From NCBI RefSeq assembly GCF_050874245.1, contig NZ_JBNMKH010000001.1, positions 9,140-73,139 of the forward strand: a DNA stretch of 64,000 nucleotides, written 5' to 3'. How positions within the stretch are numbered: position 1 is the first letter of the stretch; the number at the start of each line of letters is the position of its first letter. Source of the stretch: Bifidobacterium sp. (lineage in GTDB: Bacteria; Actinomycetota; Actinomycetes; Actinomycetales; Bifidobacteriaceae). Made by a program: the position numbers and the translations under genes. This document shows positions 3,094 through 54,744 of the stretch, piece after piece. The notes under the pieces are model-generated. The model did no database searches and was not told where the DNA came from. It was given only the letters and a program-made list of their open reading frames with translations.

Positions 3094-3185
3094 GATACGC
3101 TCCAGGCAGACGGAAAAGCGACTGGACGGCAAGGCGACGGACGGCATTCCCATCATCGGCATCACGTGGAAAGCCTCCCGTCGTC

Positions 3186-3213
3186 TTGTCTTGTTGGACG
3201 GTGCCGCTATCAT
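3186..3213 (+). promoter_or_regulatory. Putative sigma70-type promoter of the riboswitch operon
   Basis: TTGTCT (3186-3191), 16-nt spacer, TATCAT (3208-3213). This would put the transcription start just before riboswitch P1 at about 3224. Confidence 0.5.
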
Positions 3214-3223
3214 TGGATTTTCG

Positions 3224-3308
3224 AGTACAGGGGCGCCGAATGCGGCTGAGACGGGCAAGGCCCGAACCCTTCAACCTGATCAGGATAATGCCTGCGTAGG
3301 GATGGTAC
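3224..3308 (+). ncRNA. TPP riboswitch (THI-box) aptamer
   Basis: P1 GUAC/GUAC; P2 GGG/CCC; P3 GCCG-aaug-CGGC; conserved GCUGAGA; P3a CGGGC-aag-GCCCG; then ACCUGAUCAGGAUAAUGCCUGCGUAGGGA, matching the canonical TPP P4/P5 core. Confidence 0.95.
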
Positions 3309-3403
3309 CGGTCACATGCATGGCCATGCTCCGTGCAAGCGCGCCTTCTGTGTCTCGATGAATCATCGCAGCATACGGAAAAGCGGCAAACGGAAATCGG
3401 AGG

Positions 3404-4810
3404 ATGCCCATGGCCAGTACAATGTCATCGCCGACGGCGGAGCAATCACAATCCACGAAGCGGTCACAGGACGGGACCGCATCCGTGACAGCCGGAGATG
3501 GAGGCGCTTCCGGCAAGCTCACACCTAAAAACGCCTTGCTTGGCCTGCAGCACGTGCTTGTGTCCAACGTATGGCTCGACCCGGTGTTCGTGGCCGGAGC
3601 CATCGGTCTTCCTCTGGCGTTGTCGTCGAATATGGTGAACGCCATTTTCATCGTGTCCGGTTTGGTCACGCTCATCCAGACCACCAAACTGGTGCGCCTT
3701 CCCATCGTGCAGGGTCCTTCGGCAGCGTTCGACGCGCTGATGATCGCGGCGGGCACAGCCGGCTCTCTTGCCGCGGCGGGCACGTCGATCTTCATCAGCT
3801 CGCTGATTTTCCTCGTGCTATGCCTGACACGCGTGATAGAGAAGCTACGGTTTCTGTTCGCTCCGATCGTATCGGGCGTGGTCATCTTCCTCGTCGGTGT
3901 GTCGCTGTCGAGCTTCACGTTAAGCGAATTCCTCGGCGGGGCGCCTGGCGACAAGGGTTTCGCCGACCCGAAGACCTTGGCTGTTTCCATAGTCACCTGT
4001 GTTCTGGTGGTGGCGCTCTCCCAATTTGGCAAGGGCATGGCGAAAGCGTTGTCGTATCTGATCGCGCTGGTTGTGGGAACGGCGATGTCGCTGGCGTTCG
4101 GCATGGCGGATTTCTCCGAAGTTTCGTCCAAGCCGTGGCTTGGTCTACCGAAATTCATGCCATATGGCGGCTTCGATTTCAATGCGGCGATTTTTGTGCC
4201 TTTCCTCATCGCATACCTGGTGGCCATCATGGAGGCGCTCGGCGTATATCAGGCCGCCACGGAGATTCAGGGAACAGAGCTTGAGAATCGCCAGGTGCGC
4301 TATGGGCTTGCCGGCGAGGCCGCGGGCTCGGCGATCTCCTCGCTGATCGGCGGCTTCACCACCACCGCATATCCGCAGAACGTCGCGTTGCTCAAAGTCA
4401 CCGATGAAGGCAAGACACGCACCCGTGTGCCGGTGATCATCGCAGGCGTGGTATTCGTGGTCCTTGGATTCATTCCGAAGGCCGGCGCGGTGCTTTCCCT
4501 TATCCCATCCCCGGTGATCGGCGGCATCTTCCTGCCGGCCGCGGCCAGTCTCATCAGCACCGGCTTCAACACGCTGCGCAAAGTGGAAGGCAACGACCGC
4601 AACCAAGTGGTGATCGGTCTTTCCCTGCTGCTCGGCATCGCCTTGCCGAACGCGCTCAGCGGCCTCGAAGGCGGAGCACATGTGTTCTTCTCGAACTCGA
4701 TTCTGGTAGGAGCGTTCAGCGTGGTGATTCTCAAGGCGCTCGTCATCGATCTGCCGGATATGATTGCGCGGCGCGCAGGGAAAACGGAACGTACGAAGCA
4801 AGCGGAATAA
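3404..4810 (+). CDS. NCS2/NAT (uracil-xanthine permease) family transporter, TPP-regulated
   Basis: GGAGG RBS; TM1 LGLQH motif; many TM segments; degenerate NAT signature QNVALLKVTD. An alternative start is at 3410. Confidence 0.9.
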   Translation: MPMASTMSSPTAEQSQSTKRSQDGTASVTAGDGGASGKLTPKNALLGLQHVLVSNVWLDPVFVAGAIGLPLALSSNMVNAIFIVSGLVTLIQTTKLVRLPIVQGPSAAFDALMIAAGTAGSLAAAGTSIFISSLIFLVLCLTRVIEKLRFLFAPIVSGVVIFLVGVSLSSFTLSEFLGGAPGDKGFADPKTLAVSIVTCVLVVALSQFGKGMAKALSYLIALVVGTAMSLAFGMADFSEVSSKPWLGLPKFMPYGGFDFNAAIFVPFLIAYLVAIMEALGVYQAATEIQGTELENRQVRYGLAGEAAGSAISSLIGGFTTTAYPQNVALLKVTDEGKTRTRVPVIIAGVVFVVLGFIPKAGAVLSLIPSPVIGGIFLPAAASLISTGFNTLRKVEGNDRNQVVIGLSLLLGIALPNALSGLEGGAHVFFSNSILVGAFSVVILKALVIDLPDMIARRAGKTERTKQAE

Positions 4811-4867
4811 TCGACACCGTCACGGCATCGGACATCGCATATACGGACATACGGAAAGGAACATGGC

Positions 4868-6010
4868 ATGAACACGCGTCAATCGCAGGAATCGGCGACA
4901 CTTGACGAGCAGAAGGCGGACATCAAGCGGGAGGTGCTCGACTTCATATCACGATACGGTTGCGCCAAAGCGCCGGATGATGCGTTCGACAGGCTGGCCA
5001 GACGCATCTTCTCTTTCCAGTTCGAGCATAATCTCCCCTATCGCGCCTACTGCATGTCCAAACGCGTCACTCCGCAGACGCTCACCAATTGGATGCAGAT
5101 TCCACCGATGCCGGTCGATGGCTTCAAGATGCTGACGCTCACCTCCGTGCCGGAAAATGATTGCGAGGCGGTGTTCACCACCAGCGGCACCACGCATCCC
5201 GGACAACGTGGCCGCAATTTCCATCCCGATCTTGAGGTATGGGACGAATCGATGATCGTGCCGTTCAGGCATTTCATCATGCCCGACCGCGAGCGCATCC
5301 GCATCGCGGTGCTCTCCCCCGCATGGGATATGAACGAGCATTCGTCGCTGTCACGGTATTTGACCCGTGCCATTCAGGAATGTGGCGCCGACGGCAGTGG
5401 CTTCTTCTTCCATGAGGATGGTCTTGATTTCACCGGCGTCGAGCATTTCCTCGACAAGGCTTCGGCCGGTAATGAGCCGGTGATGCTGATGGGCGCGTCT
5501 TCGGCCTACTTGTATCTGCTGGATTATCTGGACAAGCAGGGCAAGACCTATCGTCTTGCAGCCGATTCGCGCATATTCGACACGGGCGGTTTCAAAAGCA
5601 CCCGTACCGATATGACCGTCGACGACCTGTATGCGGCGTTCGGACGCGTGTTCGGGGTGCGGCGCACGCATTGTGTGAACATGTACGGCATGACGGAGCT
5701 GAGTTCCCAGATCTATGACCAGAATATTCTATCCTATTACACGGACGGTTCGTCGAATTATTTGAAGGAGACGCCGTCTTGGGTGCGCTCGGTATTCCTT
5801 GATCCGGCCACGCTCACGCCGGTCGCCGACGGGGAACAGGGCGTGATCGCGCATTACGATCTGGCGAATTGGAATTCCTGTCTGGCGATTCTGACGGAGG
5901 ATCTGGGCGTGCGTACGGAACACGGCTACGAACTGAATGGCCGTGCGAAGGGTGCCGAGGCGCGCGGCTGCTCGATCACCGTCGACGAGGTGATGGCGGC
6001 CAACGCATGA
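4868..6010 (+). CDS. luxE-like: LuxE-family acyl-protein synthetase
   Basis: FTTSGTT adenylation P-loop, GGFK, NMYGMTELSSQ, ILTEDLG, and C-terminal GRAKGAEARGCS with the acyl-accepting Cys (codon 5969-5971, Cys368). Confidence 0.88.
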   Translation: MNTRQSQESATLDEQKADIKREVLDFISRYGCAKAPDDAFDRLARRIFSFQFEHNLPYRAYCMSKRVTPQTLTNWMQIPPMPVDGFKMLTLTSVPENDCEAVFTTSGTTHPGQRGRNFHPDLEVWDESMIVPFRHFIMPDRERIRIAVLSPAWDMNEHSSLSRYLTRAIQECGADGSGFFFHEDGLDFTGVEHFLDKASAGNEPVMLMGASSAYLYLLDYLDKQGKTYRLAADSRIFDTGGFKSTRTDMTVDDLYAAFGRVFGVRRTHCVNMYGMTELSSQIYDQNILSYYTDGSSNYLKETPSWVRSVFLDPATLTPVADGEQGVIAHYDLANWNSCLAILTEDLGVRTEHGYELNGRAKGAEARGCSITVDEVMAANA

Positions 6011-7524
6011 GCGTCGTCGATGTTTTCCACGCGCCTCGCGATTTCACGTTCTCCGATTTCGACACGCGCGACGTTTCGTTGCCTGACGGCGATACGGTGA
6101 CGTTGCGTTTTCCCCGGCTTGACGCTTCCGCGGTGCACGCGTTGGCTGATTCGGTCCGTCGGCATCGCGAGAGAACGCTGGCACGATATTCCACGGATGG
6201 AATCGTGGACATCATCGCACAGGCGGTTGAATTGTGGACCAATCCATCGTACTCGGAACGTAGGCTTGCGGAACGTCTCATTCCCGCGATCACCGGCTAT
6301 GACGCCTCCATGGTGCGTATCGAATTGAAACGGTACATGCGCATGTTTCGCAGACGCGAGCTGCTGCGTTTCGTGGATGACGAATTGGATTGCCCGCAGA
6401 TGCTCGACGAGTACCGTCCGAACCGATCGGGCGGATACACGCGCTTGTATGGTCCAGAACTGTCGTTCCATGTATTCTCCAGCAATGTGCCGGGCATTCC
6501 GGTGTGGAGCATGACGATGTCCTTGCTGACGAAAAGCTCGATTCTCGGCAAATCGTCGTTCGACGAGCCGCTGATGCCGGTGCTGTTCGCCCGTTCACTG
6601 GCAAGTGTCGATCCCGATATGGCGGATGCGATGGCGATCGTGCCATGGCGTGGAGGCACGGTGGATTTGGAGGATGCGGCGATTGACGAGGCGGACGCGG
6701 TGATCGCATACGGTTCCTCGCATGCCACCGAGGCGATTCGTCCCCGCGTGCGTTCCGGCAAGCCGTTCCTGAGTTACGGCGCGAAAATCGGCTTCTCCTT
6801 GATCGGTCATGAGGCTCTCCGCGCGGACCTGTATGCCGATACCGTTCACCGCATGGCCATCGATGTCGCCACATACGACCAGCAAAGCTGTCTGGCGCCG
6901 CAAACCATGTTCGTGGAACGCGACGGCGCCGTGCCTCCCGCCCATGTCGCGGAGCTGCTCGCCTGCGAACTGGAATCCCAACAGTGCAAATATCCCCGTT
7001 CCACACCTTCCGAGGAAGAATCCCTGGCCATCCAGCGGCTTCGTTCCACAGCGCAGATGAAAGCCCTGATGCTGGGCGCCGGTCCACTGGCCGGCGTCTG
7101 CGAATCCGATGACGATTCCACGGCAACGGACGACCCGTTCGTCGTCCAATCACGTTCGGGCACCGATTGGACGGTACTGTATTATCCGTCGGTCGGCATG
7201 GCCGACTCCCTCTCCACGCCGTTGAACCGCACCATCAACGTCGTGGCGGTGGACCATGTGGAGGACGCGCTGCCGGTTTTGCGTCCCTACGCGCAGTGGC
7301 TGCAGACTTGTGGTGTGGCATTGGGGCCGGATAGGCTGTTTGCGGTGGCGCAGCGCGTCGGCGCCATGGGCATTGACCGCATATGTCCCCTTGGCGAGAT
7401 GAATCGCGCGAAATCCGGATGGCATCATGATGGCGGCTTCAATCTGCTTGATTTGGTGCATGCGGTCGACATCGAACGCAACACCGACGTGTATTGCGAC
7501 GGCTTCGACATGGATGTCGAATGA
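6007..7524 (+). CDS. luxC-like: LuxC-family acyl-CoA/acyl-protein reductase
   Basis: ATGA overlap with the luxE stop. Motifs SNVPGIP, ILGKSS, VIAYGS, YDQQSCLAPQ (catalytic Cys295, codon 6889-6891), RICPLGEM, WHHDG. Confidence 0.88.
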   Translation: MSVVDVFHAPRDFTFSDFDTRDVSLPDGDTVTLRFPRLDASAVHALADSVRRHRERTLARYSTDGIVDIIAQAVELWTNPSYSERRLAERLIPAITGYDASMVRIELKRYMRMFRRRELLRFVDDELDCPQMLDEYRPNRSGGYTRLYGPELSFHVFSSNVPGIPVWSMTMSLLTKSSILGKSSFDEPLMPVLFARSLASVDPDMADAMAIVPWRGGTVDLEDAAIDEADAVIAYGSSHATEAIRPRVRSGKPFLSYGAKIGFSLIGHEALRADLYADTVHRMAIDVATYDQQSCLAPQTMFVERDGAVPPAHVAELLACELESQQCKYPRSTPSEEESLAIQRLRSTAQMKALMLGAGPLAGVCESDDDSTATDDPFVVQSRSGTDWTVLYYPSVGMADSLSTPLNRTINVVAVDHVEDALPVLRPYAQWLQTCGVALGPDRLFAVAQRVGAMGIDRICPLGEMNRAKSGWHHDGGFNLLDLVHAVDIERNTDVYCDGFDMDVE

Positions 7525-7577
7525 TTCCATCCACGTCATCCCGTAAAAACTTTTTCTCCGAATCGAAAGGAACTTTC

Positions 7578-8369
7578 ATGCAGTCTGATCTTCTGCCATT
7601 GAACGGACGTGTGGCTGTGGTGACGGGCGCGAGCCGCGGCATCGGCGCTGCCATCGCGCGGCGTCTGGTCCGGGCCGGGGCATGTGTGGTCATCGACTAT
7701 GTCAGCGATGACGAGCGAGCCCAACAGTGCGCGCGGCATATCATGGACGACTGCGATGCGGCCGGACGCGTGATCACCTGCAAAGCCGACATCACCGACG
7801 CCGGACAGGTACGGAACATGGTCTCCACCGCAATCACCACGTTCGGCGGATTGGACATTCTCGTCAACAACGCGTTCGCGCATTACTCGTTCGATCCACG
7901 CAACCGCAGGACCTTCGACGTGATCGGATGGAACGATTACGCGGCACAGCTGGAGGGCTGTCTCAAAGGCGCGTACAACACATGCGAGGCGGTGCTACCG
8001 CAGATGAGACGTCAAGCGGGCGGACGCATCATCAACATCTCCAGCAACCTCGTGGACTCCCCCATCGTCCCATACCACGACTATACCGCGGCAAAAGGCG
8101 CGCTTGTCGGATTCACCCGCTCTCTGGCGCAGGAGGCGGGCGCGTGGGGCGTGACCGTGAACGCCATCGCAGCAGGTCTCACCGTGGGCACCGATTCGAG
8201 CCGAGCCACCACCGAGGATGTACGGGAACGCATCATCAGATCCACTCCGATGGGCAGACTCGCCACCGCCGATGACATCGCCGGAGCCGTGGCCATGCTC
8301 GCCGGCGATGACGCGGCGTTCATCACCGGTCAGACCCTGCATGTCGATGGCGGCCTTGTGATGCGCTGA
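7578..8369 (+). CDS. Classical short-chain dehydrogenase/reductase (FabG-like)
   Basis: TGASRGIG, NNA, IINISSN, PYHDYTAAK (YxxxK), GQTLHVDGG; AAGGA RBS. Confidence 0.92.
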   Translation: MQSDLLPLNGRVAVVTGASRGIGAAIARRLVRAGACVVIDYVSDDERAQQCARHIMDDCDAAGRVITCKADITDAGQVRNMVSTAITTFGGLDILVNNAFAHYSFDPRNRRTFDVIGWNDYAAQLEGCLKGAYNTCEAVLPQMRRQAGGRIINISSNLVDSPIVPYHDYTAAKGALVGFTRSLAQEAGAWGVTVNAIAAGLTVGTDSSRATTEDVRERIIRSTPMGRLATADDIAGAVAMLAGDDAAFITGQTLHVDGGLVMR

Positions 8370-8489
8370 CCGAACGGAGGGCCGCAGAAGCACGGGAGCA
8401 TGCGGGTATAGTGGTGCGTTGGCCCGGACGCCGGCATCACACGGCACAGGACTTCACAGTCACGGCACGTCCACCGGTAAGGAGGAAAC

Positions 8490-9032
8490 ATGAACATCAC
8501 CGTGTATCTCGGCGCGCATAAAGGCAACGATCCGTCCTATAAGGAAGCCGTTGAGGAATTGGGCGCATGGATCGCTGACAGCGGCAATCGTCTGGTGTAC
8601 GGCGGATCCGATGAGGGATTGATGGCGGATATCGCCGATTCCGTACTATCCCACGGCGGCGAAGTGACCGGCATCGAGGCACAGATGTTCGCGGACCGAG
8701 GTGTCGCGCATACAGGATTGACCGAATTGGTCATCGTGCCGGACATCACCGAACGTCGTACGCGCATGATCGAGCTTGGCGATGTGTTCATCGCCTTCCC
8801 CGGCGGCACGGGCACTTTGGAGGAAATCAGCGAGGTCGTGTCGAAAATCTGCCTCAGCCAGCTGTCCCAACCGTGCATTTTCTATAATCTCAACGGTTTC
8901 TACGACGATATGAAGGCTTTCCTGCAGCGGATGGTCGATGAGGGTTTCTCCACCGCGGACCGGCAACGAGGCATCTATTTCGCGTCCAACCTAGCGGAAA
9001 TCGAACGAATCATCGCCGGTTCCCGCCCATAG
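8490..9032 (+). CDS. LOG-family (TIGR00730) Rossmann-fold nucleotide phosphoribohydrolase
   Basis: LVYGG, GLM, R..RMIELGD, FPGGTGTLEE motif; AAGGAGG RBS. Confidence 0.9.
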   Translation: MNITVYLGAHKGNDPSYKEAVEELGAWIADSGNRLVYGGSDEGLMADIADSVLSHGGEVTGIEAQMFADRGVAHTGLTELVIVPDITERRTRMIELGDVFIAFPGGTGTLEEISEVVSKICLSQLSQPCIFYNLNGFYDDMKAFLQRMVDEGFSTADRQRGIYFASNLAEIERIIAGSRP

Positions 9033-10803: not shown

Positions 10804-10854
10804 CAAAAAAGATGGGGTGCATGCCCGGTAGGAAACCGTGGTACGCACCCCATT
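10804..10854 (-). terminator. Intrinsic terminator between convergent der and RHH genes
   Basis: ATGGGGTGC...GCACCCCAT stem with an adjacent A6 tract on the plus strand (U-tract on minus). Confidence 0.7.
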
Positions 10855-10870
10855 ATCGAAATCGCTGATG

Positions 10871-13000
10871 CTACTTGCGCTTCTTCTTCTCACGCACGTT
10901 CACCGAAATCTGAATCGGCGAGCCTTCAAAACCGAATTCCTCACGCAGACAACGCTCGATATAACGACGGTAGCCATGCTCAAGGAAGCCCGTGGCAAAG
11001 ATCACAAAACGCGGCGGACGCGTGGAAGCCTGCGTGGCGAACAGGATTCGAGGCTGCTTGCCACCACGCAACGGATGCGGATGAGCCGCCTGAATCTTGC
11101 CGAGGAACGCGTTGAGCTTGCCGGTCGGAATACGCTTGTCCCACGATTCCAGAGCTCCGCGCATGGCGTTGGCCAGACGGTTGGTATGCCACCCGGTCTT
11201 CGCCGACAGGTTCACACGCTGCGCCCAGGTCACACGGTTGAACTCGGTCTTCCACAGACGTTCCATACGCTGGCGGTCGAAATCGTCCATCAGATCCCAC
11301 TTGTTGAACACGAGCACGATGCATCGGCCCGCGTCCACGGCCTGGCTCATGACCTTCAGGTCCTGATCGGAAATCGGCTGGGACGCATCGAACAGCACCA
11401 AAGCGAGCTCGGAACGCTCGATGGCGGCCTGTGTACGCAGCGAGGAGAAATACTCCGCACCGGACAGCTTGTGCAGGCGACGTTTGATGCCGGCGGTATC
11501 GATGAACAGCCAGTCCTCGCCATCGACGGTGACGACCTCATCGACCGGATCGCGCGTGGTGCCGGCCAGATCATTGACGACGCTACGCTCCTCATGGGCA
11601 AGTTGGTTCAGCAGGGACGATTTGCCGACGTTCGGACGACCGACCAACGCCACTCGACGCAGATGAGACGGCGTGAGGAAACCGGAGGTCTTTTCGGCCT
11701 TTTTCAACGAATCGAGCGCGGCATCCAGCAATTCACCGATGCCCCTGCCATGCATGGCGGAGATGCCGTACGGCTCGCCCAGACCCATCTTCCAGAATTC
11801 TGCGGTCAGATATTCGCTCTCGCGATCATCGACCTTGTTCACGGCAAGCGTCACCGGTTTGCCGGCGGCACGCAGCATTCTGACGATGCGTTCGTCGGTG
11901 TCGGTGAGACCGACAAGACCGTCCACCACGAGAATAACGGCGTCAGCCAGCTGGACCGCGATCTGCGCTTGGGATGCGATGGCGGATTCGATGCCTTCCA
12001 CGTCGGCTTCCCAACCGCCCGTATCAACCAGTTTGAAATCGGTTCCGCACCATTCCGCGTCGTAACTCACACGGTCACGGGTCACTCCCGGCGTGTCCTC
12101 CACGACGGCGGCGCGACGGCCAAGAATACGGTTCACCAGCGTGGATTTGCCTACATTCGGACGCCCCACCACGGCGAGCACTCCGACCGGCTTCGGCCCA
12201 TTCTGACGTTCGCCGCCGGAGAACGCGGATCCATCGATCAGAGCCTCATCGCCTTCATCAAGGTCGTATCCCTCGAGATTGGAAACATACTGACGGTATT
12301 CCTGCTCCTCGATGGCGTCGTCGACGATGCGGATCAGCACGTCGAGCGTCTCGCCGAAATCAAGGTCGGAATTATCGACGGTCAGCACGCCTTCCGCGGC
12401 GGAAGTGAAATTCGTGACCTTCGAATCGGCCTTGTCGCGGGCCGCGACGTTCTCCGCACCCACGCCGGAGGCGGCCTGTCCGCTGCGGCGGGCCTGACGC
12501 ACTTCCTCACGGGCGGTGAGCAGGATGCGAACCTCGGCATCAGGGGCGACGACCGTGGTGATGTCGCGGCCTTCCGCGACCACGCCGGAGCCTTCGGAGA
12601 AGGAGTCGGAGGATGCCTCGCGTGCGATGTAGGCACGCTGCGCGGCGATCAGGACGTGGCGTACCGGAATGATGTTCGATACCTTGGACACATGCGAGGA
12701 GACCTCGGAAGAACGTATGGCTTCGCTGATGTCCTCGTCGTCGGCATACACTTTCGGATCGTCCGGATCGACGCTGATATCGAAATGGCCGTCGGTGAAG
12801 AACTCCCCTACCGTCTCGGTGATGAGCTGTTCGTCAACCGTCTCGGCATCCAAATCGATGCCCTTGTGCATGCACCACCAGGCACATGCGCGGTACATGG
12901 CACCCGTGTCGAGGTATGCGAAACCGTAATACTTGGCCAACGCCTTGGACGTGGAGGATTTGCCGACGCCGGCGGGCCCATCGATGGCTACACGGATCAC
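10871..13000 (-). CDS. cmk-der: Bifunctional cytidylate kinase / ribosome biogenesis GTPase Der
   Basis: N-terminal [11 protein letters not shown] (Cmk); two G-domains (GRPNVGKS twice, DTGG/DTAG, NKVD/NKWD); C-terminal KH-like domain. Confidence 0.97.
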
Positions 13001-13770
13001 AGGCCCACCGCCTTGGACAGGGAGCGGACCTCGGTCTGCGACAGCACACGGTACGTGCCGCTCTTCAGATCACCGAGCTTGATCGGACCGATCTGGGTGC
13101 GCACCAAACGTCTCACCGGGAAGCCGATCGAGCCGAAGATACGACGTACAATACGATTTTTTCCGGAATGCAGCACGACCTTGACAAGGGTGCTCTCTCG
13201 ATTGGCATCGAGAATCGCGCAACGGTCGAGCTTGATCCAGCCATCGTCGAGCTTCACGCCGGTCGTGACGAGACGACGGCACACCTGGCCGCTGATACGG
13301 CCTTCCAGTGTGGCGATGTAGGTTTTCTCCACCTCGTACTTGGGGTGCATGACGTGCTGGCTCAACTCGCCATCGTTCGTCATGAGAATCAGGCCTTCCG
13401 AATCATAGTCCAGACGGCCCATATGGAAGATACGCTCGTACTTGTCGCCCACGATGTCGCGTAGGGTGTAACGTCCCTTCGGATCCTCCATGGCGCTCAA
13501 CACGCGCTTCGGCTTGTTCAATGCAAGCGTGACATGGTTCGGATTCACGCGGACGCGGGAACCGTCGACACGCACCTCCTGATGCTTTGGATCGACGCGG
13601 GTGCCAAGCTCGGTGACCAACTCGCCATCGATCTCGACACGACCATCGGTTATGATCTCCTCGCATTTACGGCGGGAACCAAAACCCGCCTGGGCAAGAA
13701 GCTTCTGCAGGCGAATGCCTTCATTATCATGATTGTGCGCCTTGGCGGCGCGGGAATATGCGTTTGGCAT
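12997..13770 (-). CDS. rluB: RsuA/RluB-family pseudouridine synthase
   Basis: S4 domain [13 protein letters not shown]; catalytic [10 protein letters not shown]; GTGA overlap with cmk-der. Confidence 0.93.
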
Positions 13771-15017: not shown

Positions 15018-15092
15018 ATCGCAGGCCTTTCGCTGTATATCGGCGTGTGGACGTGTGCCCAGACGCAAAAACAAAGGTAATCATAATATTAA

Positions 15093-15136
15093 GACGTGGC
15101 GTCCAAAAGCCAACACATGGTTTCGGACGCCACGTC
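15093..15136 (-). terminator. Hairpin downstream of purH
   Basis: 12-bp inverted repeat GACGTGGCGTCC/GGACGCCACGTC with an AT-rich tail on the minus strand. Confidence 0.55.
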
Positions 15137-15186
15137 ATTTGCAATGTCGCCGCATGTCCACGGACATCAGGCGACAGACATGGGAC

Positions 15187-16815
15187 TCAGTGGAAGAAAT
15201 GGCGGGTGCCGGTCACGTACATGGTGACGCCGGCCTTACGGGCCGCTTCGAACACTTCCTCGTCGCGGATGGATCCGCCAGGCTGCACGATGGCCTTGAC
15301 GCCGGCGTTGATCAGGATCTCGGCGCCATCGGCGAATGGGAAGAAGGCATCAGACGCCGCCACCGCGCCCTTGGTGCGGTTGGCGCCGTCAGCCAGCGTG
15401 TTGGCACGTTCGACGGACAGGTTCGCGGAATCCACCCGGTTGACCTGTCCCATGCCGATGCCGACTGTCGCCTGGTCATGTGCAATGAGAATGGCATTGG
15501 ATTTGACGCAACGGATGGCTCGCCATGCGAATACCAGATCCCTGACGGTTTCGGCGTCGGCAGGTTCGCCGGACACCAACTTCCACGCGTTCGGATCGTC
15601 GCCCGGAGCGTCGATCAGGTCCGTGGACTGTACCAGCAGGCCGCCGTCGATTTGACGGAACTGGGTCTTGGTCTTCGGCGGCTCGGACACCTTCAGGATA
15701 CGCAGGTTCTTCTTCTTGGTCTTCAGCAGCTCAAGCGCGTCCGCATCGTAGTCGGGAGCGACGATGACTTCGGTGAAGATCGGACGGACGCTTTCGGCCA
15801 TCTCCATGGTGACCTTGCTGTTGGCGGCGATCACGCCGCCGTATGCGCTCATCGGATCGCAGGCATGCGCTTTTTTATGCGCCTCGGCGACGGTCGCTCC
15901 GATGGCCAGACCGCAAGGATTGTTGTGCTTGACCACGGCGACCGCGATCTGCGGAGCGAAATCCCATACCGCACGCCATGCGGCGTCAGCATCAACATAG
16001 TTGTTGTAGCTCATCGGCTTGCCGCCGAGCTGCTCGGCATGAGCGAAACCGTTCTGGTCGAGCGGATCCAGATACAGCGAAGCCTGCTGATGGGGATTCT
16101 CGCCGTAGCGCAGCACATGCGCGCGATCCCAAGTGCGGGTGAACGTGGCTGGGAATTTGGATTCGTTCACCTCGGTCTCATCTTCAGCGTCCGTTTCCTG
16201 GATGGAGGCCGGCTTCGTCCAGTGCTTCGAGGTCCATTCGTTAATGGTGGCGTCGTACGCCGCGGTGTGGGCGAATGCCTTTCCGGCAAGCCAGCGACGC
16301 TCCTCAAGGGAGAAGCCCTCGCCGTTCTCGATGCGGGAGGCGACGAGTGCATAATCGTTCGGATCGGTGATGATGGCGACGGTGGCGCTGTTCTTGGCTG
16401 CGCCACGCACCATGGACGGACCGCCGATATCGATCTTTTCGATGGTGGCGGCCTCGTCGGCGCCGGATCGAACCGTGTCCGCGAACGGATACAGGTTGAC
16501 GACCACCAGGTCGAACGGCTTGATGCCGAACTTCTCGAGCTGCGCGGCATGATCGGGATTGGTCATGTCGGCAAGGATGCCCGCGTGGATATGCGGGTCG
16601 AGAGTCTTGACGCGGCCATCAAGGCATTCCGGGAAACCGGTGACCTCGGAGACCTCGGTCACCTTGACCCCCAACTCAGCCAGACGCTTCGCGGTGGAGC
16701 CGGTGGAAACCACCTCAGTGCCCGCCTTGATGAACGCCTTGGCGAGAACCTCAATGCCTTCCTTATGGAAGACTGACACCAGAGCCCGTCGTATCGGTCG
16801 ATTCGTTGTTGTCAC
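15187..16815 (-). CDS. purH: Bifunctional AICAR transformylase/IMP cyclohydrolase
   Basis: [38 protein letters not shown]; GTG start after GGAGG. Confidence 0.97.
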
Positions 16816-18151
16816 CCTGATCCTCCTTGTTGTTGTTTTTCGAGGCAACCGTACGTGACGCACGTGTTTCCTCACGGCTGGTTTTCGTGGAATCGGAAAC
16901 TACGCTTCCCTTTCCACGCTCGCGGATACGCCTTATCATCCAGCGTACGGCGAAAAATATGGATACGGCCACCAAAGTCAGGAGCCATGCGGAAAACAGA
17001 CCAATAGCGGTCGGTTGCCCCACTTTGCGTGTCGATGCGATCACATCGACGCCCACGTGCGCGAGATGCTTCGTTCCCAGTCCTCCGTCGCTCAGGGAGA
17101 ACAACAGGCTGGAAACCACAGACACCACGGCGCTTGCTATTGAGAAGGCCGCGATGGGATACGCGAAACTCATCACGACGTGTCTGACATCGATGTCCTG
17201 TTCGGGAGCACCCACCCTGATACGGAAACCCTTATTGAACAGCATGACGACCATGCCCATCACGAACGCGGCCGCCACGGGTGTGCACATCAGCGCGATC
17301 CTCACCCAATTCGTCTCAACCGCCTGCGGGAACAAACCGAATATCGGCAACGCGGGAAGACCTGCCCCCTGGCCGCTCCATAATGTGAACTCCGCCAGGT
17401 CACCGATGGAGAAACCCGCGCCGAAAGCCCAGGACACAGCCCAGATCATCAGATTGGGGAGCCACGCAAGCATGCTGATGGTGGTAAGGATACGCGATCC
17501 GTTCTGCATGCCGGACAGCTCATAGAGCCTCGCCACGGCCGACTGATTGCTGACCGCCCAAAAGATGACCGCGATCAATCCAACAACCAGATACACGGCG
17601 ACAAGCAGCAAGCCCAATGCGGAACCTATGATCACCGTCCTGCGAACAGGCGATGAGACGTGCCGGGTGAGCCATGCCATGCAGTCCTTAGTTCGTTCAG
17701 CTTGCGGAATCGCCGCGATGGCATAGCCAATGGCGAAAATGATGGCGGTTTTGACGATGATCGTCATCATCGAATCGACGAGTCCGACCTCGACGCTTCT
17801 CATGAAAAAGACGTTCATCAGCTCCCAAAGCGTCAATCCGGCGACGAAGCCTCGCCAGCTCGTACCGAAACGCCCTGCCACTTGCCTGATGAGTGCGATG
17901 AGCAGCAACGTGAGCAGCAATGGAATGATCGTCAGTGTGACGGCGCCGGACTTGAAACCGGTTCCCTGACTGAGCAGTATCAACGCCTCAGTCAGGGAAA
18001 TGGAGAGGGCGGAAAGGTTATCTCCACCCTCTTCCATGGAAATGACCAGAAGCATCAGTGCCATATAGCAACCGAGGGCAACGGCATAGATGATCATGGA
18101 CGTTGCCGCTACGGCAAGCCCCTTCAGCCAATACTTCAGGTTCGTTATCAT
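16763..18151 (-). CDS. DUF6350 / PerM-like multi-pass membrane protein
   Basis: Many TM helices, WLPNLMIWA motif; position after sucD as in actinobacterial perM loci; ATGA overlap with sucD. Confidence 0.8.
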
Positions 18152-27685: not shown

Positions 27686-28516
27686 TCACTGACCGACGAC
27701 ATGCGCGTATGTATATTGCGGAGCCTGACGTGTCGACTTGATCGTCACCCTGTCCGAAGGGTCGACGGACACTGTGGCGCCATATTTCACTTTGAGCCTC
27801 GAACCTACGCCGCCGGCAAGATTGACCGCGTTCTGCAGATTGTCGACATCGCCAATCGCGCGAATGGTGTATGGCGCCTTGAGCTTGGTGCCGTCGCAGA
27901 CGAGTCCGTTCGAGGCATCGCTGATGTAGGTGCTGGTGACCACACGCACGTTGTTGATCTCGATGACTTCGGCGCCGCTGTTGCGCAATTCCTCAAGCAG
28001 AGTGAACAGGACAGCGGCATCGATCTTCTGTTTGTCGCCTTGCGAGATACGGATGACCACACCTTCGCCGGTGGCCGCGAGACGCCCGGAGAGAATACCG
28101 TTCGTCTGCGCGTTCTGGCGTGCGATTTCCGCGGCTTTCTCGTTCTTGTCGGCAGTATCCTTCAACGCGTTCAGCTGACTGGAAAGCTCGTTCTTGCGCT
28201 GCTCGAGCTTCTGGACCTGGGTGCTTGTCTCGCTGATGAGTTTGGTCAGCTCGTCCTCACTCATCGTCTCGTATGTGGATGTGGTGTTGTTCACTTGGAT
28301 GGCGTAGCTGAAGCCCAGCAATGCGCACAGCACCGTGACGAGAATGCTGGAATATAGTCTGGCACGGGTGGTCTTCGCGTCAAGAGAGATTCGTTTCGTC
28401 CTGGACTTGACCATGGGAAACGCGCCGGTCTGTGTGCTGTCGTTGTTCTGGTCCTTGACGATCTGCTCATGGATCTTGGACAGCACATCCTTGTTGTTCT
28501 CGTTATGCGCGGACAT
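27686..28516 (-). CDS. DUF881 family membrane-anchored coiled-coil protein
   Basis: TM helix, coiled coil, ELRNSGAEVIEINNVRV, PYTIRAIG. Confidence 0.88.
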   Translation of the reverse strand: MSAHNENNKDVLSKIHEQIVKDQNNDSTQTGAFPMVKSRTKRISLDAKTTRARLYSSILVTVLCALLGFSYAIQVNNTTSTYETMSEDELTKLISETSTQVQKLEQRKNELSSQLNALKDTADKNEKAAEIARQNAQTNGILSGRLAATGEGVVIRISQGDKQKIDAAVLFTLLEELRNSGAEVIEINNVRVVTSTYISDASNGLVCDGTKLKAPYTIRAIGDVDNLQNAVNLAGGVGSRLKVKYGATVSVDPSDRVTIKSTRQAPQYTYAHVVGQ

Positions 28517-28522
28517 ACCACA

Positions 28523-28855
28523 TCAGCCCTTGAAGATGAAGCGACGGATGGAGGACACGTTGGTGAAGATTCGTATGCCGAGCACCACAATCACGGCAGT
28601 CTGCAACTGGGATCCGACACCCAGCTGGTTGCCAAGGAACACCAGCAGCGTGGCGGTGATGACGTTCGAGAAGAAGGAGATGACGAATACCTTGTCGGAA
28701 AAACTGCGTTGGAAATACGCACGTGCCGCGCCCAGCAGCGCGTCCAACGCGGCCAGCACCATGATCGGCAGGTATGGCTGCAGCTCGATGGGGATGTCCG
28801 GACGGACGAACACGCCGATCACCACGCCGATGATGAGTCCCAAGACCGCTGCCAT
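28523..28855 (-). CDS. Small basic protein (DUF1290)
   Basis: YLPIMVLAALDALLGA, LGVGSQL, RIFTN; lies between two DUF881 genes. Confidence 0.9.
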   Translation of the reverse strand: MAAVLGLIIGVVIGVFVRPDIPIELQPYLPIMVLAALDALLGAARAYFQRSFSDKVFVISFFSNVITATLLVFLGNQLGVGSQLQTAVIVVLGIRIFTNVSSIRRFIFKG

Positions 28856-29826
28856 TACTCGTCCTTCCTCACATGAGTCGTATCGCCTGCGACCGCAGCT
28901 TCCAGTGTAATGGATTTGCTTCTGCTCACCTGCGGATAGATGCCGGCCTTCTTGAAATCGTCATACAGCTTTTTCTGCGTCGTTTTGTCCACCGCCTTCG
29001 ACAAGGCGACCGGATTGCCGATCGCCTCAATCCTGTAAGGGCTTTGCACCGAATTCACACCGATGAGAATCGTTGTGCCGGCCGTTCGAATCGAGGTCTG
29101 CACGCCGAGTCTGTTGCCGTTGATGGCGATCGCCTCCGCGCCCGACTGCCATAGCAGGGAGACCAGCAGCTGCAGGTCGGAATCGGTGACGACGCGGATT
29201 TGGTTGCCGTTCTCCCTGGGCAATGAGGAATCCGCATTGTCGCCGCTGACCGCAAGCGGGTTAGCCACCGTCAGGGTGATGCCTTCACCTTGCACCGGAA
29301 GAGTGCCGTTGACCATCTCGTCATCCCGCAACGTCTGGTTCAACGACCAGTTCGCCACGGATTTCGATTCGGTCTCAACTTGGGATCGCAGGTCGTTGAC
29401 CTCCTTGGTGAGATCACCGGCCTGCTTCGTCTGATCTGTCAATTGGCTTGCCAGCTGTTTACGCACCTCCTTGCGCGGATCGGTGCTGAGCTGGCGCACG
29501 AAGACGCTCCCTGCCGCTCCGACTGCGATGCAGATGAGAAACACCAGGATTCTGGTGGCCCAAATCGATACGGTAGAACGCTTCTTGGTCGCCAATCTGG
29601 AATCGGAATACAGCACATCCATCGGACGGTTGGTCAAATCGTCTATGAGACGAAGCGAATCCTCCTCGGTGTGTCTGCGTCGTTGGGAAACCGCAGGCAT
29701 GGAGACCTGCTGCACATGATGCGACGCGAGTCCCGCGAAAGACGCCGAAAAAACAGCACGATGCTTCGTCGGCATGTTCTCCATCGAGACGGGGAACGAC
29801 ATGTAACGCGGAGCATCGGCATTCAT
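28855..29826 (-). CDS. DUF881 family protein
   Basis: DSDLQLLVSLLWQSGAEAIAINGNRL, PYRIEAIG. Confidence 0.88.
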   Translation of the reverse strand: MNADAPRYMSFPVSMENMPTKHRAVFSASFAGLASHHVQQVSMPAVSQRRRHTEEDSLRLIDDLTNRPMDVLYSDSRLATKKRSTVSIWATRILVFLICIAVGAAGSVFVRQLSTDPRKEVRKQLASQLTDQTKQAGDLTKEVNDLRSQVETESKSVANWSLNQTLRDDEMVNGTLPVQGEGITLTVANPLAVSGDNADSSLPRENGNQIRVVTDSDLQLLVSLLWQSGAEAIAINGNRLGVQTSIRTAGTTILIGVNSVQSPYRIEAIGNPVALSKAVDKTTQKKLYDDFKKAGIYPQVSRSKSITLEAAVAGDTTHVRKDE

Positions 29827-29831
29827 GTGAT

Positions 29832-30443
29832 TCAATCCTTATGGTTTCCGTCGTTCTTCAGCAACTGAAAGCCCTGACGCATGTAGATGTATCCCGCGAG
29901 CCAGTACAATCCAACGCCCCAGATGCCAATGGCAAGGCCGCATAGATGCAACGAGTCGGTGGCGGAATTCGACCAGATGTCGGCGAAAATCAACACGACG
30001 ATGGCTATCAGCAGCATCGCGGTACCGGCTTTGCCTACGAAATGGACGGGCAACGGGCCATAATCATGTTGCGCGAGAACCAATATGAGGATAGCCATGA
30101 TCAGATCCCGAAGGCCGACGACGATCAGCATCCACCATGGAATGATGTTCGCCACACCCAAGGCGAGAATGCTGCAGAAAATCAGCAGACGATCGGCGAT
30201 GGGATCGAGAATCTGACCGATTTTGCTCACCTGGTTGAACGATCTGGCGATCAGCCCGTCCAATCCGTCGGATACCGCGGACAAAGCCAGCACGACCAAG
30301 GCGGGAACCATCTTGTGGTGGGAGACCAGCACTGAAATGAAGGGAATCGAAATGATCCGCAACAGGCTGATGAAATTCGGAACCGTGAAATAGATGTCCC
30401 GCGGTTCCGGACTGTACTGCTTCTTGATAATCAGTTTGCCCAT
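29832..30443 (-). CDS. CDP-alcohol phosphatidyltransferase (PgsA2/cardiolipin synthase type)
   Basis: TVPNFISLLR, SDGLDG, GQILDPIADR, GKAGT. Confidence 0.92.
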   Translation of the reverse strand: MGKLIIKKQYSPEPRDIYFTVPNFISLLRIISIPFISVLVSHHKMVPALVVLALSAVSDGLDGLIARSFNQVSKIGQILDPIADRLLIFCSILALGVANIIPWWMLIVVGLRDLIMAILILVLAQHDYGPLPVHFVGKAGTAMLLIAIVVLIFADIWSNSATDSLHLCGLAIGIWGVGLYWLAGYIYMRQGFQLLKNDGNHKD

Positions 30444-33429: not shown

Positions 33430-34305
33430 TCAGTTACGGGCGTTATGGATGCCGTCGGCGAGCTCCTCGGTCTTCGCGGCCAAAGCCCTGAGACCGGCGG
33501 CCTCGTCGACGGCGTGTTTGCCGGATTCGTCGAGCATGGTATGCACCAAGGCCGAGCCCACGATGACACCATCCGCATATGCTCCCACACGGGCGCCCTG
33601 CTCCGCGGTGGACACGCCGATGCCGACGCACACGTTTTTCGCCCCGGCCTTACGGGTGCGGGATACCAGCCCCTCCGGTGAGGCGTCGATGGTGGAACGT
33701 TCGCCGGTGACGCCCATGCGTGCCGCCGCGTAAACGAAGCCACGCGCATTGTCGGCGACGATCTTCAGACGGTCCTCGGTGGAATCCGGGGATACCAGGA
33801 AGATACGGTCAAGCCCATGGCGGTCGGACGCCTCGATCCATTCGCCGGCCTCGTCCGGAATAAGGTCCGGAGTAATCAGACCGGCGCCGCCCGCGTTCTC
33901 GAAGTCACGTGCGAAACGCTCGACGCCGTAATGGAAGATGAGGTTCCAGTAGCTCATGACCAGCGGCACTCCCCCGGCATTCGCCACGGTCTCCACGGCT
34001 TTGAACACATTGGCTATTTTCTCGCCGTTGTCGATGGCAATCTGGGAGGCCGCTTGGATGACGGGGCCGTCCATAACGGGATCGGAATACGGCAATCCGA
34101 TCTCGACCGCGTTCACACCATGTTCGACCATGGTGCGGAACGCTTTGAGCGAGTATTCCGGATCAGGGAATCCATATGGCAGGTATCCGATGAAAGCCGG
34201 CCTGTTGGCAGCTTTGAATCCCTCGAACATGGATTCCGTCGGGCTGGGCTTGTGACTGATGCCGAGCGGCTGTCCGGACGGCGTGGATGCTGTTGCGTTC
34301 ATCAT
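33430..34305 (-). CDS. trpA: Tryptophan synthase alpha chain
   Basis: EIGLPYSDPVMDGPVIQ, GVTG, GIGVS, ADGVIVGSA. Confidence 0.97.
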   Translation of the reverse strand: MMNATASTPSGQPLGISHKPSPTESMFEGFKAANRPAFIGYLPYGFPDPEYSLKAFRTMVEHGVNAVEIGLPYSDPVMDGPVIQAASQIAIDNGEKIANVFKAVETVANAGGVPLVMSYWNLIFHYGVERFARDFENAGGAGLITPDLIPDEAGEWIEASDRHGLDRIFLVSPDSTEDRLKIVADNARGFVYAAARMGVTGERSTIDASPEGLVSRTRKAGAKNVCVGIGVSTAEQGARVGAYADGVIVGSALVHTMLDESGKHAVDEAAGLRALAAKTEELADGIHNARN

Positions 34306-34322
34306 GATGATTGCTCCTTCTC

Positions 34323-36416
34323 TCACTCGCCGTCCACGTTGTTGCCCTGGGCGCCATTGGCTTCCAGTGCCTTGGCCTGTTCATCGGTCAGATATCCGAA
34401 CCACTTGCCGGCGGTGTTCATATCCTTGTCTCCACGACCGGAAATGTTGATGATCATGACCGGATGCTCATAGCCCTTGGCCTTGAGGTCCGCGGCTGCC
34501 TTATAGGCACCGGCGACGGCATGGGAGCTTTCGATGGCCGGAATGATGCCCTCGGTCTCGCACAGGTCCTTGAAGGCGCTCATGGCCTCCTGATCGGTCG
34601 CCCAGGAATAGTTGACGCGACCGATGTCCTTGAGCCATGCGTGTTCGGGGCCTACGGAAGCGTAGTCCAATCCGGCGGAGATGGAATAAGTGTCGAGGGT
34701 CTGCCCTTCGGAGTTCTCCAGCAGATAGCTCTTGGCTCCCTGGAACATGCCGAGTTCGCCGGTACCCGGCGCGAATCTGATGGCATGCCGCCCGGATTCG
34801 GGGCCATTCCCGCCAGCCTCGTAGCCGTACAGGTTCACACGTTCGTCATCAAGGAAGGCGTTCATGATGCCGATGGCGTTGGAACCGCCGCCGACGCATG
34901 CGCAAATCGCATCCGGATGGTCGATGCCGTACCAATCCTGCAACTGCTGCTTGGCCTCCTCGCCGATGATCTTCTGGAAGTCGCGCACCATGGATGGGAA
35001 CGGATGAGGACCCGCGACCGTACCGAGCAGGTAATGGGTGTCCTTGACGTTGGTGACCCAATCACGCAACGCCTCATTGATGGCGTCCTTGAGAATGCGG
35101 TCACCCAAGGTGACCTCCACGACTTCAGCTCCCAGCATGCGCATGCGCGCCACGTTCAACGCCTGGCGACGAGCATCGATCTGACCCATGTAGATGCGGC
35201 ACTTGAGACCCAGCATGGCGCAGACCGTCGCGGTGGCCACACCATGCTGTCCGGCGCCGGTTTCGGCGATCACGCGGGTCTTGCCCATGCGCTTGACCAG
35301 AAGGGCCTGCCCGAGCGCGTTGTTGATCTTGTGGGCACCGGTGTGGTTCAGGTCCTCACGCTTGAGGAACACACGAGCGTCAAGCCCGGTCTTCTCTTTG
35401 AGACGCTCGGCGAAACGGGGAGCCTCGGTCAACGGGGACGGACGGCCGACATACTGCTTGTTCAATCGAGCCAATTCCTTATGGAATTCCGGATCGGCCT
35501 TGGCTTCCGTATACACGCGCTCAAGCTCGTCCAACGCCGTGATCAACGCTTCCGGCACATATCGTCCGCCGAATTGCCCGAAATACGGTCCTTCATGGCT
35601 TGCCAATGGGGTCTGTTCGGATGCTTTCACTCTTGCACCTGCCTTTACTAGTCGGTTCACCGCCTGTTCGTGGTCGGCTGCGGTGGCGACGCCTTCGCCA
35701 ACCAGCACCGCATCGGCGCCGGCACGGGCATAGTCCTCAAGCTCGACCGCGCCGAACACACCCGATTCCGCCACACGAATCACATCATTCGGCAAATCGG
35801 CCGCCAATTCGTTGTATTTGTTCACGTCCACCTTGAGATCTTTGAGATTACGGGCATTGATGCCGATGACCTTGGCCCCCGCCTTGATGGCACGCTGAAT
35901 CTCCTCACGCGTGTGGGTCTCCACAAGAACCGTCATGTTAAGACTGTGAGCAAGATCGAGCAGGGACTTGAGCCTGTCATCATCCAACGCGGCGACGATG
36001 AGCAGCACCAAATCCGCCCCATGCGCACGCGCCTCCCAAATCTGGTATTCGGTGACGATGAAATCCTTGCGCAGCACGGGAATCCTCACCGCGGCGCGCA
36101 CCTTGTCGAAATCGTCAAGCGAGCCGAGAAACCGGCGTCCCTCGGTAAGCACGGAAATCGCGCTTGCCCCTCCCCGTTCGTATTCACGGGCCAAAGCGGC
36201 CGGATCGGGGATATCGCTCAAATGACCTTTGGAGGGGGAAGCCCTTTTGATTTCGGCGATGACCGGGACGCCATCCGACTTCTTCAGCCATTGACGCGCG
36301 TCAATCGGCGACGGCGCGTCGAACGCCATACGCTTGACCTCGTCAAGCGGCACATCCTTCTCCCTCGATTTCTGATCTTCGACGGCTCCCGCCACCAATT
36401 CATCGAGCACGGACAT
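34323..36416 (-). CDS. trpCB: Fused indole-3-glycerol-phosphate synthase / tryptophan synthase beta
   Basis: TrpC: [24 protein letters not shown]. TrpB: [31 protein letters not shown]. One uninterrupted ORF. Confidence 0.97.
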
Positions 36417-36457
36417 TGATATTCCTTTCACAACACAATCGAATGGTCACGCATGAC

Positions 36458-47709: not shown

Positions 47710-47748
47710 GATTTCTATAGTAGTTGCCGTTCTTCCAAGGCGCACTGG

Positions 47749-54635: not shown

Positions 54636-54744
54636 AAGCTTCCCGCTTCTCGAAATCCGTTGTACATACAGCATCATAACCGTCATGCCGCACTTTCCTC
54701 CGAAGCCGCGACTCCACGGCAACGAGATGCATGGGACAAGCCGA

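Follow-up and report, generated by a model that had tools for sequence, protein, structure and literature searches.

The LuxC–LuxE complex of luminous Photobacterium and Vibrio, solved by cryo-EM (7XC6), is a two-protein carboxylate reductase. LuxE activates the carboxylate by adenylation and binds the acyl group through its C-terminal cysteine; a cysteine of LuxC then takes over the acyl group, which is released as the aldehyde with NADPH. Genes for a LuxE-like and a LuxC-like protein are present in a stretch of 64,000 nucleotides from Bifidobacterium sp. (contig NZ_JBNMKH010000001.1, positions 9,140 to 73,139), referred to here as the window. They belong to an operon that starts with a thiamine pyrophosphate (TPP) riboswitch and contains, in this order, the genes of an NCS2 permease, LuxE, LuxC, and a short-chain dehydrogenase/reductase (SDR). 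We consider it likely that the operon is induced by thiamine starvation and serves the salvage of a carboxylic-acid oxidation product of thiamine, which would be reduced to a usable precursor, either hydroxymethylpyrimidine (HMP) or hydroxyethylthiazole (HET).

Far less is known about the salvage of thiamine than about its synthesis. The closest published work is a 2024 study by Oliveira-Filho, Rodionov, and Hanson of OarX, a FabG-like SDR distinct from the housekeeping FabG, which is encoded behind a TPP riboswitch among genes of thiamine synthesis, salvage, and transport (PMC11223231). The function of OarX has been missing since 2002 (PMC11223231). Three products of thiamine oxidation, 4-amino-2-methylpyrimidine-5-carboxylic acid (PCA), 4-methylthiazole-5-acetic acid (MTA), and thiamine acetic acid, are documented as "orphan" compounds whose fates are not known, and activation followed by reduction through the aldehyde to the alcohol was proposed as their salvage route (PMC11223231). 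The authors of the OarX study suggested that the SDR reduces the activated derivatives of the three acids; their genetic study of this chemistry was negative in its organism (PMC11223231). The chemistry was thus proposed without the enzymes described here: neither LuxC nor LuxE appears in that paper, the model organism carries oarX-fmnO, and the only activating enzyme noted near oarX is an occasional acyl-CoA synthetase (PMC11223231). In contrast, the SDR of the module analyzed here is always paired with LuxE and LuxC. A full-text search of the literature found no paper linking LuxC or LuxE homologues to thiamine or riboswitches; it returned lux reporter papers.

Two other kinds of described systems are related to the operon. 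The TenA/YlmB/ThiXYZ and ThiM/ThiW salvage modules also combine a riboswitch-controlled transporter with enzymes that return thiamine fragments to HMP or HET, and they are often placed inside a thiazole-biosynthesis operon. They employ hydrolysis or deformylation and phosphorylation, whereas the operon of the window would reduce a carboxylate at the expense of ATP and NAD(P)H. Type I carboxylic acid reductases (CARs), which are phosphopantetheine-dependent multidomain enzymes with adenylation, thiolation, and reduction (A-T-R) domains, catalyze the same overall reaction, from acid, ATP, and NADPH to aldehyde, and readily accept aromatic and heteroaromatic acids. The system in the window differs from them in being formed of two proteins with a proposed Cys-to-Cys acyl relay and in lacking an SDR-type R domain. 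The Pfam search detected neither PP-binding nor NAD_binding_4 domains in the pair, which is therefore not a single-polypeptide CAR.

The operon and its control region consist of the following features:

3186–3213, forward strand: promoter-like site TTGTCT, 16 nt spacer, TATCAT, identified in a consensus scan and ending 6 nt before the riboswitch

3219–3321, forward strand: TPP riboswitch aptamer (Rfam RF00059, 71.1 bits, gathering score 54.3)

3319–3415, forward strand: probable expression platform, from ViennaRNA folds

3404/3410–4810, forward strand: permease of the NCS2 (nucleobase/ascorbate transporter) family, presumed importer of the substrate (Pfam Xan_ur_permease, 231 bits)

4868–6010, forward strand: LuxE-like acyl-protein synthetase of 380 amino acids (Pfam PF04443, solved structure 7XC6_E)

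6007–7524, forward strand: LuxC-like acyl-thioester reductase of 505 amino acids, aldehyde-forming and of the aldehyde dehydrogenase (ALDH) type (Pfam PF05893, alignment with 7XC6_A)

7578–8369, forward strand: FabG-like SDR of the NF006393 (PRK08642) subfamily, presumed to reduce the aldehyde to the alcohol (Pfam adh_short)

The initial annotation of this DNA described an intact LuxE–LuxC pair with both catalytic cysteines retained and the genes overlapping by ATGA, and it named a search with the Pfam LuxE and LuxC models as a check. The pair withstood this scrutiny in each respect. The LuxE-like open reading frame (ORF) matches Pfam LuxE with 77.9 bits (cut-off 24.9) over residues 48–375, and the LuxC-like ORF matches Pfam LuxC with 387.8 bits (cut-off 21), so that the two proteins are members of the respective families. 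The ATG of LuxC at 6007 overlaps the TGA of LuxE at 6008–6010 within the sequence ATGA (6007–6010), an arrangement by which LuxC is, judging from the sequence, translationally coupled to LuxE. The tight junction recurs in relatives, where 33 of 63 junctions have the 4-nt overlap and most others have a 1-nt overlap or a gap shorter than 25 nt. The pairing of LuxE with LuxC is far beyond chance. In the alignment with the Photobacterium LuxC structure (7XC6_A), Cys295 of LuxC and its motif YDQQSC fall on YDQQAC, and residues D291, Q292, Q293, and C295 are invariant in an alignment of 18 homologues. Cys368 of LuxE, in the motif GCS (G367-C368-S369), is 98% conserved among 64 sequences. The LuxE family profile matches the solved LuxE (7XC6_E) with E = 7e-35 and places Cys368 on the KGCSL segment at the C-terminus of that structure, which is the acyl-accepting site. 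The ANL-type adenylation motifs of LuxE, SGT (106–109), YGMTE (273–277), TED (343–345), and GR (358–359), are at least 95% conserved.

The pair thus shares with the luminous LuxC–LuxE the two-protein architecture, the Pfam families, the adjacent and coupled genes, an ANL-type LuxE with a C-terminal GCS cysteine, and an ALDH-type LuxC with a YDQQxC cysteine. However, the similarity of the window proteins to the solved chains is remote (53–61 bits). LuxE scores 73.7 bits against the NCBIfam equivalog of luminous LuxE (NF052244), which has a cut-off of 550 bits, and LuxC scores 88.7 bits against that of luminous LuxC (NF052251), with a cut-off of 750 bits; another member of the cassette is likewise below the luminous LuxE and LuxC cut-offs. 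The gene order is E followed by C, the partners are an importer and an SDR instead of LuxD and LuxAB, and genes of this type are found under a TPP riboswitch and within thiamine operons of non-luminous hosts, many of them anaerobes. The Pfam scan covered 56 of the window's 58 candidate ORFs and gave no match to the Bac_luciferase (LuxA/B, PF00296) or LuxD families, and luxA, luxB, and luxD are absent from the inspected neighbourhoods of the relatives. Because the equivalog cut-offs are not reached and the partners of a lux operon are absent at the locus, the pair is a LuxCE-like reductase but not part of a lux system. The initial annotation had reported the absence of LuxD and luciferase from the window and the presence of an importer and an SDR in their place. 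The importer is the NCS2 permease upstream and the SDR lies downstream, an arrangement kept across phyla. The annotation's interpretation of the pair as a repurposed two-component reductase for a non-fatty-acid substrate agrees with the conserved motifs, the sub-equivalog scores, and the cross-phylum operon, and the substrate is one that we can only infer. The sequence evidence argues for a LuxCE-type two-protein carboxylate reductase that has joined the TPP regulon along with a transporter for uptake and a reductase for the aldehyde.

The TPP riboswitch, which the initial annotation overlooked, sharpens its interpretation toward the thiamine pathway. The aptamer is full length (model positions 1–105), contains the canonical CUGAGA and ACCUGAUCnGGnUAAUnCCnGCGnAGGGA cores, exceeds the Rfam gathering score, and is positioned 83 nt upstream of the permease start on the same strand. 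The same element is present in the same position in Bifidobacterium ruminantium and in a Bifidobacterium metagenome-assembled genome (MAG) (loci L001 and L002). Riboswitches of the TPP class allow expression when TPP is scarce. The promoter-like site upstream is the sole one between 2900 and 9200, against 2.6 expected from shuffles, and is weak taken alone; its position fits a transcript beginning at the riboswitch. The same region yielded no terminator-like site, and successive genes of the operon are separated by 57 nt, −4 nt (the overlap), and 53 nt. In the folds predicted by ViennaRNA, the segment just 3′ of the aptamer (3319–3333) pairs with positions 3398–3415, with a z-score that is not significant. 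The paired stretch spans the ribosome-binding site GGAGG (3399–3403) and the start codons at 3404 and 3410, and the predicted pairing suggests translational control of the operon.

At least 513 loci in a one-genome-per-species collection encode a relative of the LuxC protein, and the counts given below cover the best-scoring 80 of them, which include loci from Clostridia. LuxC homologues with 35–70% identity are found in Bifidobacterium, Bacillaceae, Paenibacillaceae, Lactobacillaceae (Limosilactobacillus fermentum, Lentilactobacillus, Leuconostoc, and Fructobacillus), Desulfosporosinus, Alpha- and Betaproteobacteria, and a Chloroflexota MAG. The hosts of the module belong to anaerobic or non-luminous genera. 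The first four contexts inspected all show the cassette behind a TPP riboswitch. An nhmmer model built from the elements already detected, with spot checks by Rfam, identified a TPP element upstream of LuxE and LuxC on the same strand in 74 of the 80 loci. The element was confirmed at the Rfam gathering score in 13 loci from four phyla, including those of Limosilactobacillus, Niallia (in tandem), Tumebacillus, Halalkalibacter, Ureibacillus, Azospirillum, Roseomonas, and the Chloroflexota MAG. Eight of the 13 are distant loci that came in addition to the first ones confirmed. In five of the six loci with no match, the sequence breaks off at the end of a contig or flank or the operon begins there, and only in Tuberibacillus (L030) does the element look genuinely absent. 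Since a bacterial genome typically carries just a handful of TPP riboswitches, the chance that one is located within 4 kb on the right strand should be far less than 1% for any one locus.

Tandem TPP riboswitches precede the operon of ThiW or NCS2 permease, LuxE, LuxC, and SDR in Niallia, Bacillus infantis, and Leuconostoc. Tandem elements are present at locus L005 (5640–5748 and 5903–6012) and also at L014, L016, L022, L038, L048–L050, and L070. Such tandems suggest a sharper, more digital response of the operon to TPP.

The conserved core of the module, as determined by all-against-all clustering of the ORFs with Pfam and NCBIfam searches on representatives, comprises LuxE, LuxC, an NF006393-type SDR, and a transporter. 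ORF calling was crude in the high-GC loci. An SDR of the same cluster as that in the window is present in 69 of the 80 loci. NF006393 is always the best model for the cassette SDRs, with 276–303 bits, approximately 80–100 bits above the FabG models, and PGAP names these proteins "3-oxoacyl-ACP reductase". The SDR of the window has its true start at the ATG at 7578, displays the motifs TGASRGIG, NNAF, and YxxxK, and scores 276 bits with NF006393, about 80 bits over the next SDR model. With this margin over the FabG models, the riboswitch, and the thi-gene context, it fits the description of OarX, to which it is likened by description only. Close homologues of the SDR for which the context was inspected all adjoin LuxE and LuxC.

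In several lineages, the module is embedded in operons of thiamine biosynthesis. The operon of Paenibacillus has the order thiO-(thiS)-thiG-thiF-NCS2-luxE-luxC-sdr-thiD-thiE, that of Ramlibacter thiD-luxE-luxC-ABC-sdr-thiS-thiG-thiE, and that of Robertmurraya-like Bacillaceae TPP-thiG-thiH-luxE-luxC-ABC-sdr-TMP_TENI, where ABC denotes an ATP-binding cassette transporter. Further arrangements are ABC-luxE-luxC-sdr-thiM in Paenibacillus naphthalenovorans and NCS2-luxE-luxC-sdr-thiM-thiD-thiE in Neobacillus. No ThiC motif was found in any of 91 loci, each represented by its local neighbourhood. In a Proteobacteria-like genome (L091, 7926–11019), a trio of LuxE, LuxC, and SDR without an adjacent transporter is followed by two genes of UbiD-family (prenyl-FMN) decarboxylases and preceded, on the opposite strand, by a xanthine-dehydrogenase-type molybdoenzyme. 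There, the reductase module may have a different use, on heteroaromatic acids.

The transporter is the variable part of the module. An NCS2 permease directly precedes LuxE in 47 of the 80 loci, an ABC system with a binding protein of the NMT1/THI5 family is present in 25, and an additional ThiW in nine. In Niallia, behind the tandem riboswitch, the ThiW component of an energy-coupling factor (ECF) transporter stands in place of the NCS2 permease. A profile of the binding protein of the ABC system matches THI5 best (1e-11), followed by the ThiY that binds formylaminopyrimidine (FAMP) (2.5e-8), with TauA and SsuA above 1e-4; the relationship of the binding protein to ThiY itself is distant (36.5 bits). 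The permease of the window, which may start with the ATG at 3410 instead of 3404, reaches 325 bits against the NCBIfam model pbuX, under its cut-off of 414, and passes that of NCS2_1. Its nearest solved relatives are SVCT1, UraA, and UapA.

The best match among these structures, by a small margin, is SVCT1, a transporter of the organic acid ascorbate. In its motifs of transmembrane segments 8 and 10 (TM8 and TM10), the permease retains the Q-N of the nucleobase/ascorbate transporter (NAT) signature (..YPQNVALLKVT..) and the TM8 glutamate (IMEALGV), and it has a valine where SVCT1 has the aspartate of ESIGD. UapA and XanQ have an aspartate at this position, and UraA has a histidine. The motif pattern and the match to SVCT1 could indicate an anionic substrate.

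The proposed function of the operon is as follows. When TPP is low, the riboswitch (3219–3321) would permit the expression of the four proteins. The NCS2 permease would import the carboxylic-acid oxidation product of a thiamine moiety; the presence of a dedicated importer points to an extracellular source of the acid. LuxE would adenylate the acid with ATP and load the acyl group as a thioester onto Cys368 near its C-terminus. By analogy with the solved LuxC–LuxE complex, the acyl would then move to Cys295 of LuxC and be reduced with NAD(P)H to the aldehyde. As the two cysteines have been retained along with the adenylation motifs, the same relay is the simplest reading. The SDR would convert the aldehyde into a primary alcohol. 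This alcohol would be a normal thiamine precursor, to be phosphorylated by ThiD or ThiM and coupled by ThiE. The candidate series of acid, aldehyde, and alcohol are PCA, formyl-pyrimidine, and HMP, or MTA, thiazole-acetaldehyde, and HET; a third series would take the whole vitamin from thiamine acetic acid to thiamine. Gene identities, catalytic residues, riboswitch, conservation across phyla, and embedding in thi operons are observed; from them we infer which way the flux runs, how the acyl is relayed, what the SDR does, and which acid is the substrate.

Several observations weigh against this function. Corynebacterium glutamicum with the TPP-regulated OarX was unable to use PCA, MTA, or thiamine acetic acid (PMC11223231), but this result has no direct bearing on the module because LuxE and LuxC were not reported in that strain; it is even what would be expected if LuxE and LuxC are the missing activating and reducing enzymes. 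A tblastn search with Firmicute queries found no thi genes (thiD, thiM, or thiE) within the 64-kb window. The cassette is not among the listed matches for B. longum, B. breve, B. bifidum, and B. adolescentis, all common in humans, and is therefore an accessory trait. The expression platform is a thermodynamic prediction, and the proposed assignment to salvage is drawn from sequence comparison.

It is improbable that the substrate is intact thiamine acetic acid, reduced straight back to thiamine. This acid is a known bacterial and mammalian product of thiamine oxidation (PMC11223231), and control by TPP would fit it equally well. However, the module is embedded with thiD, thiM, thiE, and thiazole genes, and not with thiamine kinases, ThiT, or ThiBPQ, and a small permease of the nucleobase type would hardly be expected to transport a vitamin that is bulky and cationic. 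We give as little credence to a TPP-sparing bypass, in which the reductase, under thiamine shortage, would provide an aldehyde or alcohol that normally comes from an enzyme dependent on TPP, or would detoxify an accumulating acid, without feeding thiamine synthesis. The central metabolism of bifidobacteria depends on TPP enzymes, and the riboswitch in itself shows just induction at low TPP, but the module invariably comes with a dedicated importer, and its insertion between thiF and thiD, or between thiD and thiS, in biosynthetic operons of unrelated phyla is hard to reconcile with a bypass of central metabolism. The remaining alternative, an ordinary fatty-acid reductase that provides a lipid aldehyde or alcohol, or a remnant of a lux system with luxAB and luxD elsewhere, is very improbable. 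The Pfam membership and the conserved catalytic cysteines are compatible with it, and two FadD-like acyl-CoA ligases are encoded elsewhere in the window. Against it stand the scores far under the cut-offs of true LuxE and LuxC, the window without a luciferase or LuxD match, and the anaerobic or non-luminous hosts. Furthermore, the TPP riboswitch and the embedding among thi genes have no rationale in lipid metabolism, and the neighbour of the pair is an importer of a nucleobase family, not an acyltransferase.

Within the salvage of a thiamine-derived acid, the choice of the acid is closer. We tentatively favor PCA, which would give HMP, with a slight lean over MTA. By the same mechanism in the thiazole branch, MTA would be reduced through thiazole-5-acetaldehyde to HET, which ThiM would phosphorylate; this is possible, and nearly as likely as PCA. 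Comparisons of the binding protein, the permease, and the SDR with the PDB and NCBIfam lean to carriers of the pyrimidine type without settling the choice. The lean to PCA comes from the types of carrier, the thiazole-gene operons without thiM, and the occurrence of ThiW as an add-on. The two dominant transporters, the nucleobase-family permease and the THI5/ThiY-like binding protein, belong to families that bind nucleobases or HMP and FAMP, which points to a pyrimidine-like ligand and speaks against MTA. Four lineages carry the module in one operon with thiD/thiE and the genes of de novo thiazole synthesis, but with neither thiM nor thiC. If MTA were the substrate, co-transcription with de novo thiazole synthesis would be redundant, and without thiM the HET would be left unphosphorylated. 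In Bacillus subtilis, tenA sits in the thiazole-gene operon, a placement comparable to that of the module. ThiW, which is predicted to import thiazole, accompanies the transporter that the module already has and does not replace it, with Niallia as the exception.

On the side of MTA, thiM is the sole thi gene in the operon of P. naphthalenovorans. ThiW, matched at equivalog level as the predicted ECF component for a thiazole precursor, is co-operonic in nine loci; it is the only transporter of the operon in Niallia sp. NCCP-28, and a ThiW-ThiM unit adjoins the module in Leuconostoc. MTA is an arylacetic acid, and the nearest ANL relatives of LuxE are phenylacetate-CoA ligases. The OarX study ties the TPP-regulated SDR mainly to thiazole genes (PMC11223231). 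Moreover, 62 Bifidobacterium strains possess ThiC but neither ThiO nor ThiH, so that the thiazole branch is the weak one in these strains (PMC6593275).

A further candidate role, in which the cassette would replace the missing ThiO/ThiH of Bifidobacterium as a source of iminoglycine, for example by reduction of oxalate to glyoxylate, was rejected: the cassette co-occurs with ThiH or ThiO elsewhere. Its occurrence in Lactobacillaceae, which generally rely on the salvage of precursors and not on de novo thiazole synthesis, disfavors this role further.

The window has a guanine-plus-cytosine content of approximately 59%, as in Bifidobacterium DNA, and its LuxC-like protein shares 94% identity with the one from B. 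ruminantium DSM 6489. Among public RNA runs, a bovine gut metatranscriptome is the sole one indexed for positions 3150–8450 and contains 12% of the sampled words; this match is consistent with a member of the B. ruminantium group from the rumen or from cattle. The gene 120 nt past the SDR (8490–9032, forward strand) belongs to the LOG/TIGR00730 family of "lysine decarboxylase-like" nucleotide 5′-monophosphate nucleosidases. It is kept beside the cassette in only the two closest Bifidobacterium relatives (L007 and L008) and is probably a separate unit. Both this gene and the FtsX/ABC pair upstream of the operon were rejected as parts of the module, as they are conserved only in the closest Bifidobacterium relatives.

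The Pfam scan assigned the remaining genes of the window to housekeeping functions, among them succinyl-CoA ligase, ruvAB, thrS, and his and trp genes. An ORF of 702 amino acids on the reverse strand (34323–36431) combines the domains of indole-3-glycerol-phosphate synthase (TrpC) and PALP (TrpB-like), an apparent trpC-trpB fusion that adjoins trpA (33430–34326) and anthranilate synthase (36458–38152). Two long ORFs on the forward strand, of 827 amino acids (10838–13321) and 573 amino acids (15055–16776), have no Pfam or NCBIfam match, and each is shadowed by an antisense ORF of nearly equal length (10871–13000 and 15187–16875). Two paralogues of DUF881 on the reverse strand (27686–29835) flank a small ORF (28523–28855) in an apparently conserved arrangement. 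The two paralogous FadD-like AMP-binding enzymes mentioned above are encoded on the reverse strand at 45661–47745 (694 amino acids) and 52806–54722 (638 amino acids) and are unrelated to the LuxE/LuxC operon.

On balance, we think that LuxE, LuxC, and the NF006393-type SDR form a widespread and so far unrecognized pathway of vitamin B1 salvage, present in at least 513 species genomes, for PCA and/or MTA. A riboswitch-controlled set of importer, activating enzyme, thioester reductase, and aldehyde reductase would supply the enzymes missing from the route proposed for the orphan acids. If this is correct, it would be the first physiological role of LuxCE-type reductases outside bioluminescence, and SDRs of the OarX type would be suggested to be aldehyde reductases of thiamine precursors. 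The annotations "acyl-CoA reductase", "acyl-protein synthetase", and "3-oxoacyl-ACP reductase" of the three enzymes would have to be corrected, and the pair would offer a compact way of reducing small heteroaromatic acids without a carrier domain. PCA and/or MTA, which are excreted by mammals and made by microbes, would become vitamers in the exchange of vitamin B1 in the gut, rumen, and soil. Predictions of B1 auxotrophy and cross-feeding would change accordingly for Bifidobacterium, Lactobacillaceae, Bacillaceae, Paenibacillus, and some Proteobacteria.

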